Origin: Escherichia coli O157:H7
Lineage (GTDB): Bacteria > Pseudomonadota > Gammaproteobacteria > Enterobacterales > Enterobacteriaceae
DNA: 64,000 bases
Direction: 5' to 3' (one strand)
Assembly (NCBI RefSeq): GCF_013167455.1
Contig: NZ_CP038328.1
Below, in pieces: positions 39,001-42,000 of this stretch. A program made the position numbers. Each line of letters starts with the position of its first letter. Position 1 is the stretch's first letter.

Positions 39001-42000
39001 TGGCCGACACAGCCGTACTGCCCTTTGCTCAGGTCTGCCTTCGGATGATTCAGCGTACTCATATCCTGCACATCATGCAGGCAGTGGTCGGCCGGAATAA
39101 TATCGTTATATCTGCAGGCAGCCCCACCCGGCGTAACTGTACTGCGGCGCGCCAGCTGTTTAATGCGCGGATCCGGAGCATCGTATGAATCCGGCAGCGG
39201 AAGCCCTTCACCGTAAGCCATGGCATTGGACTGCCCGGCCAGTACGATGACGTAGTACCAATCCGGCTCAGTTGCACCACTGACCACCACATCACCTTCT
39301 GCTGTAATCACCTGCATCAGGGTATAAGGGGTTATGGCCACCGGACTACCAAACGGCTGCCAGCCCTCTTTCAGTTTGTGTGTCAGCTTTTCCGCAAGGT
39401 CTGACGGCGACGCCGCCCTGACAACATCATAATGTTTAAATGTCATTATTCCTCCCCTTTCCGGGATTTTCCTCAACAGTTGCGGGCCACGGTCCGGCCA
39501 CAAGGAGAATCAAAAGAGGAGAACCGCAGCCCGCAAAACGAAAAAGGCCGCGCAGTTGCGCAGCCTTATAAACCCTGGTTAAAATCCACACGATAAAAAT
39601 GACAATGCAAGTATCTCATGCTGTTGCCCGAACCCACTCGGGCTTTTTTTTGCATGTAAAAAGGCTCCTGCGATGAGAAGCCTGGATATATGCCTAATCT
39701 CTGTATACAGCATGATGCCGGGTGCCTCCCGGTGAATTCTGCAATGACCAGACAGAATCCGCAACTTGCCTATACAATACGCAACCAAACATCTGTCATT
39801 ATGCCCCGCCGCTCAGGGGGATTCATCATGCAGGATTTTTTTAACAAACGCTCAGCATGTCAGGCAACAGTCAACTGCCTGAATTGTGAGGCATTTAACA
39901 TTTCACTGTCCGGTGTCTTTCCTGTAATAAAAAGCCCGCAAAAGAGAGTCAGGGCAGATAAGTGTGGTGTGGTGCGTTGTACTGGATTCGAACCAGTGAC
40001 CGATTGCTTAGAAGGCAATTGCTCTGTCCGGCTGAGCTAACAACGCAGAATACCGATAATGGACCGCCACCGGGGACTCCGAATCTCGCACAGGGTGACG
40101 TTCTTTCCTGATGAGCTAGTGGCGGTTGGTGGCCCTTGCTGGATTTGAACCAGCGACCTGGCGATTATGAGTCGCTCGCTCTCACCGCTGAGCTAAAGGG
40201 CCGATTGCTGAATAATAACGACGCATGATTAACTCCGCAATCTCATCCGTTACGAATGATTAAATCCTGTACTTCCCGCACCGTCTGCTCAAAACGTTCA
40301 GTCTCCAGTTCAACGCCAGTTGCACGACGTCCCAGCGCCATCGCTGCTTTCACTGTCGACCCCGACCCCATGAAGAAATCTGCAACCAGGTCTCCCGGAC
40401 GACTGCTTGCGCTGATTATCTGCTGCAACATTTCTGCCGGTTTTTCGCACGGATGTTTCCCTGGATAGTACTGCACCGGTTTATACGTCCACACATCGGT
40501 GTACGGCACCTGCACCGTCACACCGAAATACCGCCGCAGATGCTTATATTCACTCTGCAGCTCCGCATACTGTCGGTTCAGAGAGGCATACGTATCCACC
40601 AGCTGGTGGTGGGGCTTTTCCAGTTCACCCCGCTGATGCTTCTCTTCTGCCACCCGGGCAAACAGTGCCTGTAATTTCAGATAATCGCTTTCGTTCGGCA
40701 GCTGCCACTGACCGGCACTGAACCAGTGCGACACCATGTTTTTCTTTCCTGTGGCATCTGCAATCTGTTTTGCCGTTATCCCCAGGACAGCGCGCGCATC
40801 ACGAAAGTAAGCAATCAGCGGGGCCATCACATGCTGTTTCAGTGTCCTACCCTTCGCCTCATACCCGGCATCTTTCGGACGATACGGCCCCTGATAATGC
40901 TCTGCGAACAGAATGCGCTCTGTGGCGGGGAAATACGCCCGCAGGCTTTCCTTGTTGCACCCGTTCCAGCGTCCGGACGGCTTTGCCCAGATGATATGGT
41001 TCAGCACGTTAAACCGCTCACGCATCATGATTTCGGTGTCAGATGCCAGACGATGGCCACAGAACAGGTAAAGACTTCCGGCAGGTTTCAGCACCCGCCA
41101 GAACTGCGCAAGACACTGGTCCAGCCACTTCAGGTAATCTTCATCACCCGCCCACTGGTTATCCCAGCCCTCGGGTTTCACTTTGAAGTACGGCGGGTCC
41201 GTGACTATCAGGTCAACAGAATTTTCGGGTAACGACCGCATAAATTCCAGGCAGTCGGCGTTGATTAACTCACAACTGGATATTTTTACAGTATTAAGCA
41301 TGGATCATTAAGCCTGTCTCTGATAGGCTCATTCTGCTTTTGCGCAAAGCAGTGGGCCTGAGGTTTGCTTGTGAACCCAACGCATGAGCAGATGGCTGGT
41401 GGGTGCCCCTTACACCCACCAGCCGCCCATTTACCACAAATAAAAAAGCCTTCAGGACTGAAGGCGTCTGTAACAACCAAACTGATAGTCTGCCAGACCC
41501 GCCATAACCAGCTGGGTCAGTATTAACTGGCAGCGTTCGCGTGAAAGGTAAGTATTCTGCGCAATCTCCCCGACTGTCGCCGGGTCGGTAACGCTTAATT
41601 CATTAAACACCACTCTGGCGGTTTCTGTCATATCCTGCTGTTTCAGCATGTCTTTTTCCCTTTTCCGGTTAACGTGACACACCAATAACTCTTGTCGAAA
41701 AAGCCAGCAACCTGAAAGAACGGTATTAATAACCACCAGCGAATTTATTGCGCTGCTGTATATTACGGACACAAAAAAACCACCTTCCGGTGGCTTCCTT
41801 GTGCGAAAAAACTTGCATTTCGCCTCGCGATACAGCTTTGCGAAGCTTACAGGAATTCAAGCTGTTTCTGCGTAAAAAAGCAAGCTTTTTTTATCGAAAT
41901 GAATCGTGCATAGGTACATAAAGCATGTGTTCAGCCACGGCTAACCAACCTGCAATACGTTTCTCACATGTGCTGAAACACCATTCCGGGTGAGTACGAT

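Follow-up and report, generated by a model that had tools for sequence, protein, structure and literature searches.

A conserved structured leader and a winged-helix gene accompany an M.EcoGII-type methylase downstream of tR' in an Escherichia coli O157:H7 prophage

We analysed a 64,000-nucleotide stretch of Escherichia coli O157:H7 DNA (NCBI RefSeq assembly GCF_013167455.1, contig NZ_CP038328.1), called the window throughout, which contains the start of the late region of a lambdoid prophage. The subject is a cassette consisting, in order, of a terminator, a gene for a small winged-helix (wH) protein, a terminator or attenuator hairpin, a leader of about 145 nt and a DNA methyltransferase (methylase) gene. 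A first-pass annotation had drawn attention to the interval ahead of the methylase because of a perfect 12-bp hairpin, an intrinsic terminator and a 65-aa open reading frame (ORF) resembling a helix-turn-helix (HTH) protein, and had likened the arrangement to the controller (C) protein genes of restriction-modification (R-M) systems. All of the features that it named are present on the minus strand. Beyond that account, the hairpin is one helix of the conserved leader, which surpasses the rest of the locus in conservation and in interest.

The methylase cassette at the head of the late operon

The locus sequence is found in identical form in E. coli O157:H7 chromosomes. The start of the late operon is marked by a Q-like gene, and the following elements all lie on the minus strand.

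41891-42433, minus strand: Q-like late antiterminator gene, 180 aa (Pfam DUF1133, E=1e-110; Phage_antitermQ, 35.1 bits against a cutoff of 26 bits)
~41774-41800, minus strand: tR'-like (Q-proximal) intrinsic terminator, GGAAGCCACCGGAAGGTGG followed by T7, assigned by reading the sequence; a long hairpin in the minimum free energy fold
41682-41710, minus strand: promoter-like block, TTGCTG, 17 nt, TATTGG, conserved upstream of the small ORF
41452-41649, minus strand: gene for the 65-aa wH protein, ATG start preceded by AAGGG
41441-41465, minus strand: intrinsic terminator or attenuator hairpin, stem at 41448-41465 (GCCTTCAGTCCTGAAGGC) of 7 bp with a 4-nt loop, then T6 ATTT
41296-41438, minus strand: structured leader of ~145 nt with its 3' end at the methylase ATG, matched by covariance model R1
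40243-41301, minus strand: M.EcoGII-family methyltransferase gene, 352 aa (PF01555, E=2e-43)

The methylase is 93% identical to M.EcoGII over its full length (325/350 residues); the reference sequence was machine-read from the supplement of PMC11551740, and a few of the mismatches may be character recognition errors. Identity to the methylase of phage 1720a-02, which was named a close M.EcoGII homologue by Murray et al. (PMC5778455), is 94%. PF01555 covers residues 29-340, with DPPY N-terminal at residues 35-38, a central target recognition domain and FMGSGS, an FxGxG motif, C-terminal at residues 310-315. Motif order and prophage location are those of M.EcoGII and M.EcoGI from E. coli O104:H4 prophages, from which the window enzyme shows no difference of substance. 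Judged by its sequence, the window methylase is a non-specific beta-class N6-adenine methyltransferase of the M.EcoGII type.

The behaviour of this enzyme type has been described. M.EcoGII methylates adenine at N6 in any context, is fully active and non-specific on its own in vitro, is silent in the lysogen and has deleterious effects under constitutive expression (PMC5778455). Homologues of ~93% similarity were classed as 'nonspecific' and were silent in methylomes of O111 Shiga toxin-producing E. coli (PMC6602927). The window methylase is an orphan within this common phage family, as the first-pass annotation had supposed. No restriction endonuclease gene was detected in the ORF and Pfam survey of the window or in the Prokaryotic Genome Annotation Pipeline (PGAP) annotation of the identical O157:H7 locus (+/-6 kb), again as first proposed. 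The upstream wH gene, the terminator and the leader are not described in the literature that we found on M.EcoGII-type enzymes.

A conserved and covarying RNA leader

The interval is more structured than expected by chance, as a 201-nt stretch folds with z = -4.3 relative to shuffles. The intergenic spacer is 70-76% identical between E. coli and other genera, while synonymous sites in the adjoining ORF are saturated. A DNA pattern made of three invariant leader blocks matched 61 viral contigs; 45 of the matches end at the ATG of an M.EcoGII-like ORF, and the other 16 fit the number that we estimate would be expected by chance. Covariance model R1 (144 positions, 33 pairs) found each true locus once and matched none of the 16 chance loci. 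Its single match in the window, at 41296-41438 on the minus strand, scored 132.5 bits (E=5e-28).

The distribution of the leader was examined in 80 methylase loci sampled from GTDB genomes at species level. R1 scored above 60 bits in 29 of these, and 27/29 matches end exactly at the methylase ATG; in L260 and L283 the end differs from the ATG by ~20-30 nt. The genera are Escherichia, Mixta, Enterobacter, Kosakonia, Klebsiella, Citrobacter, Buttiauxella, Rosenbergiella, Mangrovibacter, Hafnia, Lonsdalea, Ewingella, Providencia, Proteus, Serratia and Prodigiosinella, together with one contig labelled Martelella. Weaker matches were obtained in Vibrio, Aeromonas, Gilliamella, Photorhabdus and Xenorhabdus. 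The leader occurs without the wH gene in 11/29 species-level loci and in ~44 viral contigs. The leader goes with the methylase and not with the small protein.

Permissive scans with Rfam 15 found nothing at 41296-41470 on the minus strand at E<=1, and nothing on five other representative leaders. The only Rfam signal at the interval is a sub-threshold match to P26 on the plus strand (24 bits against 36). A full-text literature search with the hairpin sequence returned nothing relevant.

The leader is predicted to fold into the following helices.

41384-41430, minus strand: P1, outer helix, AUGGGC (41425-41430) with GCUCAU (41384-41389), extending P2 across a 4-nt internal loop
41394-41424, minus strand: P2, apical helix, GGCTGGTGGGTG / CACCCACCAGCC at 41394-41405 and 41413-41424, 7-nt loop
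41334-41352, minus strand: P3, hairpin CUGCUUU-GCGCA-AAAGCAG
41325-41359, minus strand: P4', AGGC (41356-41359) with GCCU (41325-41328), enclosing P3
41299-41377, minus strand: start-proximal long-range helix, GGUUCA (41372-41377) with UGAUCC (41302-41307), abutting the ATG at 41299-41301

P2 is the perfect 12-bp hairpin of the first-pass annotation. The hairpin exists as described; its position had been given ~11 nt too low, as 41383-41413 instead of 41394-41424. It has no U-tract and is therefore not a terminator.

Covariation was assessed on 69 distinct leader sequences in a covariance-model alignment. MAFFT with RNAalifold misaligned the variable-length stems of diverse leaders and produced a poor consensus, and the covariance-model alignment was used instead. 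Paired cells amount to 87.7%, compared with 80.4% in shuffles and 35-44% with slid partners. The covariation score is 0.265 against 0.136 for shuffles (0/500) and at most 0.099 for slid partners.

P2 carries compensatory changes at 9/12 pairs, one of which is UA in 34 sequences, GC in 16, AU in 13 and CG in 6, and is unpaired in none. In remote loci the stems are wholly different yet fully compensated (GGCCAGAAUGGUG/CACCGAACUGGCC, GACCGUAAAGGUG/CACCCUUACGGUC, GGCAGAAGAGUG/CACUACUUCUGCC and GGCGUACAUGAUG/CAUCGUGCACGCC). P1 is 96.9% paired with the family form AUGGGC/GCYCRU, and its only changes are one-sided and wobble-compatible (UG 35 and UA 34; GC 36 and GU 32). One-sided changes are compatible with G.U pairing on the sense strand only. 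In the clade with GGCUGGUGGGUG as the 5' arm of P2, this G/U-rich arm does not vary among 23 distinct leaders, whereas the C/A-rich 3' arm and the loop come in 15 variants. The asymmetry indicates that selection acts on the transcript.

The 3' part of the leader is similarly constrained. P3 lies one column off in the covariance-model alignment (61% paired) and was checked by folding the segment sequence by sequence. A hairpin at its position is present in 68/69 leaders, the other not having been captured by the extraction pattern, and it covaries when the sequences are taken one by one: GCUU(U)/(A)AAGC is swapped for GCUG/CAGC, with compensating closing pairs. P4' is 98.2% paired, and G-C is replaced by A-U in 5 sequences. 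The start-proximal helix is 88.9% paired with little covariation and is weakly supported. Several single-stranded blocks of the leader are invariant, namely AUGGGCG, AAGCGAACC, GGCCCA, GAGCCUAYCA and UGAUCYAUG. The Shine-Dalgarno sequence of the methylase is weak or distant (mean SD:anti-SD energy -3.1 kcal/mol).

Two groups of loci have a different spacer. In Xenorhabdus and Photorhabdus (L261-L282, L293, L310, L320) the wH-methylase spacer is shorter, ~110 nt; a P1/P2-like hairpin is kept (GCUGGUGG in Photorhabdus), the 3' domain is reduced, and R1 matches partially or not at all. Proteus-type loci (L099, L100, L294) have a 73-nt spacer with the terminator only, followed by a good Shine-Dalgarno sequence, AAAAGGA, before the methylase, and are a leaderless variant of the cassette. 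A separate observation concerns Dam sites: GATC stands immediately 5' of the methylase ATG (41302-41306) in 68/69 distinct leaders, and 32 leaders have two or three GATCs. The mom promoter of phage Mu is Dam-regulated.

The winged-helix gene, its terminators and the neighbouring genes

The 65-aa ORF, first described as HTH-like, is a genuine gene and encodes a winged helix. It is under purifying selection, with dN/dS of 0.03-0.11 against its homologues in Salmonella, Klebsiella and Buttiauxella; synonymous sites are saturated between genera. An AlphaFold2 model (pLDDT confidence 89.6) is a minimal winged helix of three helices and a beta-hairpin wing. A Foldseek search of the PDB returned only generic winged-helix matches, all at E >= 1e-3, which include IclR, MarR/OhrR, Rrf2, the dimerisation domains of O-methyltransferases, SelB and Z-alpha. 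The wH domains of DpnI-type N6-methyladenine (m6A) sensors are absent from the best 50 Foldseek matches. The sole Pfam match, TrmB (PF01978), is sub-threshold (17.4 bits against a cutoff of 25.6, E=0.004), and no NCBIfam model matches the protein. In PHROGs it belongs to phrog_331, of unknown function, and PGAP names it 'TrmB family' or 'hypothetical'.

An exhaustive profile search of 1.84 billion proteins yielded a family of 86 representatives at 50% identity. Nearly all members are short (there is one 835-aa outlier), and the match covers most of each protein. Helix three, the recognition helix, carries the motif C(Q/E)L(I/L)LTQ without variation throughout the family. The net charge of the window protein is near -1.

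Linkage between the wH gene and the methylase is close and not accidental. Among the 96 loci fetched with a wH ORF, the spacer between the wH stop codon and the methylase start is 148-152 nt in 82; the remainder are contig ends, deletions or replacements. Remote homologues of ~30-40% identity (L096, L097, L099, L101) still lie directly upstream of a PF01555 methylase. Every family member whose locus was examined adjoins a methylase or a methylase remnant; P0155 has no encoding contig on record. The wH gene is upstream in 41/80 species-level methylase loci, and the pair follows antiterminators of four Pfam families. The wH-hairpin-methylase segment is present in 2279/5426 complete E. coli genomes (42%). 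Related loci for which genes were called or annotated are flanked by antiterminator, holin, lysin, tRNA or stx genes. These results show that the wH gene and the methylase form a conserved module, which is not a C-protein module. No description of an exclusive linkage between this wH family and the methylase, or of a covarying ~145-nt leader, was found in the literature searched.

Some prophages (L002, L003, L019, L027, L039 and similar ones) keep the wH gene and its terminator and have lost or replaced the methylase. Such methylase-less variants start to diverge at P2 or shortly beyond it. In L019 the leader is fused by an internal deletion to the methylase C-terminal motif EKPAEMLQQ.

The terminator that had been placed after the small ORF is confirmed by a GC-rich stem directly before a T-tract. 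This stem spans the last codons and the TGA stop of the wH ORF. It is compensated in other genera (GCCTTCA/TGAAGGC, GCCTCCC/GGGAGGC and GCTGCGG/CCGCAGC), and its U-tract decays outside the E. coli lineage. In most lineages the wH stop codon lies in the loop or the 3' arm of the hairpin that follows (CAG-UAA-UGG, GGA-UAA-CCC, UCC-UGA-AGG). A terminating ribosome would thus melt the hairpin, suggesting a possible coupling between translation and termination.

The region upstream of the wH ORF was aligned for 22 diverse loci from many genera, in all of which a terminator equivalent to tR' precedes the cassette. The promoter-like block has the family consensus CTTGCTG-N10-(C/A)AGAGTTAYNTGTRTGTCAY, with constant block spacing and variable spacer sequence, and its architecture is TTGCTG, 17 nt, TAYNTG. 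The alignment is promoter-like rather than dyad in architecture, and no dyad operator was recognised in it. The block was not scored as a sigma-70 promoter, because its -10 element lacks the final T, and could be an internal promoter or a protein-binding site. An RNA hairpin in this block was considered and rejected, as the candidate closing pairs do not covary; the promoter-like reading is preferred. A scan of 41300-41650 found no sigma-70-like promoter. Where the wH gene is missing, the antiterminator gene is closely followed by a terminator and then directly by the leader, with a pR'-like promoter upstream. One such locus, L194, has a TTGCAA-17-TATATT promoter that overlaps with the Q gene end, a terminator at 5132-5158 and the leader at 5166-5308.

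The neighbouring features in the window are as follows.

42802-43848, minus strand: DUF968 gene
42430-42789, minus strand: rusA
40127-40202 and 39970-40046, minus strand: two tRNA genes between the methylase and the esterase gene, called tRNA-Met (CAT) and tRNA-Arg (TCT) by ARAGORN
39652-39860, minus strand: STnc100 (Rfam, 175 bits), just downstream of the phage tRNAs
39591-39650, plus strand: anti-sRNA AgvB (Rfam, 56.6 bits, at threshold)

PGAP calls the first phage tRNA in the identical locus tRNA-Ile, that is, an ileZ-type CAU tRNA. STnc100 and AgvB after the phage tRNAs are usual in lambdoid prophages of enterohaemorrhagic E. coli. A NanS-p-type esterase gene also lies downstream of the methylase. 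In the early or nin region of the prophage, a 296-aa ORF at 44513-45403 (minus strand) looks like the orfB transposase of an IS3-family (IS629-like) element on a reading of its sequence.

Control of the methylase: the favoured reading and its rivals

We think it somewhat better than an even chance that the interval is the 5' leader of an M.EcoGII-family methylase in a portable cassette, in which terminators and leader keep a toxic enzyme off until Q read-through. The analysis establishes the anatomy of the cassette, what the methylase is, purifying selection on the ORF, a conserved and covarying RNA and the linkage among the three parts, whereas Q read-through, translational control by the leader and the role of the wH protein are what we infer. 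Lambdoid phages would carry the cassette as the first part of the late operon, directly behind tR'. In the lysogen, tR' would halt unmodified RNA polymerase, the second terminator would do so again in the E. coli lineage, and the toxic enzyme would thus not be made. Upon induction, Q-modified polymerase would pass both terminators. The leader, through P1/P2, P3, P4', the weak Shine-Dalgarno sequence and the AUG-abutting helix, would then set the level of methylase translation. Finally, methylated phage DNA would be protected from restriction in the next host. The interval is most likely a two-layer safety device, the first layer being transcriptional (tR' and the second terminator) and the second a leader RNA that probably tunes translation.

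Late expression of an anti-restriction orphan by Q read-through had been proposed in the first-pass annotation, and membership of the M.EcoGII family supports it. The position downstream of tR' on the late strand, which is also that of Q and the lysis genes, the lack of a sigma-70-like promoter at 41300-41650 and the published silence in lysogens all fit this proposal. The lambda-type late leader (pR'-qut-6S RNA-tR') and the tR' region of Stx phages offer a parallel, in that the cassette lies directly downstream of tR' and would be crossed by Q-modified polymerase on its way to the tRNAs, stx and the lysis genes. Unlike classical lambda, the cassette adds a second terminator and a structured leader. 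Since the leader comes after tR' and not before it, it cannot be a qut- or put-like antitermination signal for tR'.

The wH protein is probably a trans-acting partner of the cassette nucleic acid, by analogy with Com of phage Mu. Translation of Mom, a toxic enzyme, is activated by Com, which binds a mom mRNA hairpin (PMC6483171), and operons of com with a non-specific adenine methylase are known in Mu-like prophages (PMC3299994). As in Mu com-mom, a gene for a ~60-aa nucleic-acid-binding protein (binding being predicted for wH) stands just 5' of a toxic, late, adenine-modifying anti-restriction enzyme on the same strand, the RNA around the enzyme start is structured, and silencing would be layered. 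The differences are also clear. The window protein is a winged helix with no Cys4 motif and no PF10122 match, whereas Com is a zinc ribbon. The wH gene is upstream of the leader with a terminator between, whereas the com gene overlaps the enzyme start. The window leader is much longer (~145 nt, at least four helices) and also occurs without a small-protein gene. The window operon would be under lambda-type Q antitermination, whereas Mu uses C with Dam/OxyR. The likely trans-acting partner of the leader or mRNA would be a functional analogue, not a homologue, of Com.

Relatives of the methylase supply a link to Com itself. ORFs of 38-71 aa encoding a zinc ribbon (IRCxxCxxKL...IKCPRCK) lie directly upstream of, or overlap, the start of M.EcoGII-like methylases in Vibrio, Shewanella, Aeromonas, Methylobacter, Chromatiales, Methylophaga and Opitutaceae (L299-L301, L308, L311, L315-L317, L319). 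Three of four tested scored above the Zn_ribbon_Com (PF10122) threshold (Aeromonas, Shewanella and Methylobacter), and the Vibrio ORF fell just below it. In Vibrio and Aeromonas a weak leader match precedes the zinc-ribbon ORF. By analogy, not demonstration, the wH gene would fill the functional slot that Com fills in related modules.

Several results weigh against the favoured reading. The unpaired probability from -20 to +3 is 0.45 compared with 0.51 in controls, and the start-proximal helix hardly covaries; occlusion of the translation start is weakly supported and, since the computed effect is small, we do not claim it as shown. The fold is not settled, as the invariant AUGGGC has three possible downstream partners containing GCC, namely GCYCRU by P2, GGCCCA, and GAGCCUAY near the ribosome-binding region. 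RNAalifold on the large alignment favours GGCCCA as the partner, with one compensatory case, in Mixta. The leader is present without the wH gene in many phages, so wH is not an obligatory partner and must be accessory. The near-neutral charge of wH (about -1) and its generic fold matches do not distinguish RNA binding from DNA or protein binding. The promoter-like block could give the cassette a promoter of its own, which would weaken Q read-through as the only route.

A bolder form of the favoured reading is put forward only tentatively. The leader would be a new regulatory RNA switch in which exchange of the AUGGGC(G) partner toggles methylase translation, and wH (63-68 aa) would be a new, non-zinc-finger type of RNA-binding translational activator standing in for Com in lambdoid phages. 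Where wH is missing, another signal (the methylase itself, a host factor or a metabolite) would take its place. M.EcoGII methylates RNA.

It is unlikely that wH is a C-protein-like transcriptional controller, binding cassette DNA (the upstream block or the leader DNA) and switching an internal promoter to time methylase transcription. No DNA-binding fold is commoner among bacterial regulators than the winged helix, the motif in the recognition helix does not vary, the gene is immediately 5' of the methylase, and the promoter-like element keeps a constant spacing just upstream of the wH ORF in the 22 loci. As with the C proteins of type II R-M systems, the gene for a small HTH-type protein adjoins a methylase, and timing control is plausible. 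However, C proteins are Xre-type HTH_3 dimers of ~75-100 aa that bind to C-boxes ahead of their own gene and have the endonuclease gene as their main target, whereas the window has a winged helix and no endonuclease. The C-protein-like arrangement of the first-pass annotation does not hold up, as the fold is not Xre-type HTH_3, there is no R gene and the methylase groups with orphan methylases of known specificity. In addition, no dyad C-box is recognisable, the sigma-70 scan rejects the promoter-like block, the protein is weakly acidic, and the leader and methylase occur without the wH gene. Stem changes that are compensatory and G.U-tolerant on one strand only point to RNA and not to duplex-DNA operators.

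Quite unlikely, in our judgement, is a leader with a part in processing or stabilising the mRNA, for example as a site for RNase III or RNase E or as a 5' stem-loop that protects the long late transcript. The wH protein would then act elsewhere, either on the methylase (as its subunit or a modulator) or in anti-defence with no relation to it. P1 and P2 form a helix of ~18 bp with an asymmetric internal loop, which we take to resemble phage RNase III substrates, and the leader, which a terminator always closely precedes, would stand at the 5' end of the late mRNA made by read-through. The long invariant single-stranded blocks and the exact abutment on the ATG exceed what a stability hairpin needs. 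For a subunit there is the precedent of MT-A70 and PNB-2, in which a small neighbouring protein redirects a phage methylase (PMC10810198), and the top Foldseek matches include wH dimerisation domains of small-molecule methyltransferases. Against it, the full in vitro activity of M.EcoGII alone (PMC5778455) means that no subunit is required, and the wH gene is missing from many methylase loci.

It is highly improbable that the hairpin is a DNA element, an inverted pair of Chi sites that modulates RecBCD or acts as a recombination hotspot at a mosaic boundary; as a selected feature Chi is essentially excluded, because remote leaders keep the hairpin with different stems and RNA wobble asymmetry explains the conserved arm. 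The Chi octamer (GCTGGTGG) does occur in both arms of P2, at 41395-41402 (plus strand) and 41416-41423 (minus strand), and five of the 11 in the window cluster within 40596-41740 (1.15 kb). The Chi-bearing 5' arm is the one that stays constant in 23 distinct leaders; methylase-less variants begin to diverge at the hairpin or directly beyond it, and the Proteus-type short spacer also has Chi in the 5' arm of its terminator hairpin (AAAGCUGGUGGC...). On the other side, Chi is absent from 46/69 distinct leaders, whose stems are compensated with other sequences, and reverse Chi is present in only 3/69. The invariance of the 5' arm follows from wobble asymmetry, since changes in the G/U-rich arm break pairs and changes in the C/A-rich arm do not. 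Eleven Chi sites in 64 kb is an ordinary density for E. coli. Other Chi sites near the hairpin are a 14-nt palindrome with Chi on both strands in the methylase ORF (40596-40609, CCACCAGCTGGTGG, coding for PHHQLV) and a further Chi upstream of the small ORF (41733-41740).

The enzyme was already known; the linkage to wH and the covarying leader appear to be new, as far as the literature searched shows. Together they fit a known strategy in a form of their own, in which a toxic phage gene for DNA modification is controlled post-transcriptionally and gated by antitermination. M.EcoGII-type enzymes are widely used reagents, and the mechanism by which they are silenced and switched on is not described in the literature searched. 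The leader, which covaries and lies outside Rfam, is a tractable candidate for a cis-regulatory motif, and the wH family is a candidate for a non-homologous replacement of Mu Com. In Stx phages (phiP27, 1720a-02 and several Stx2a phages) the cassette sits between Q/tR' and stx, placing an extra terminator and a leader on the path of late transcription to the toxin genes. The putative switch would bear on the escape of phages from restriction and on m6A-dependent host defences.

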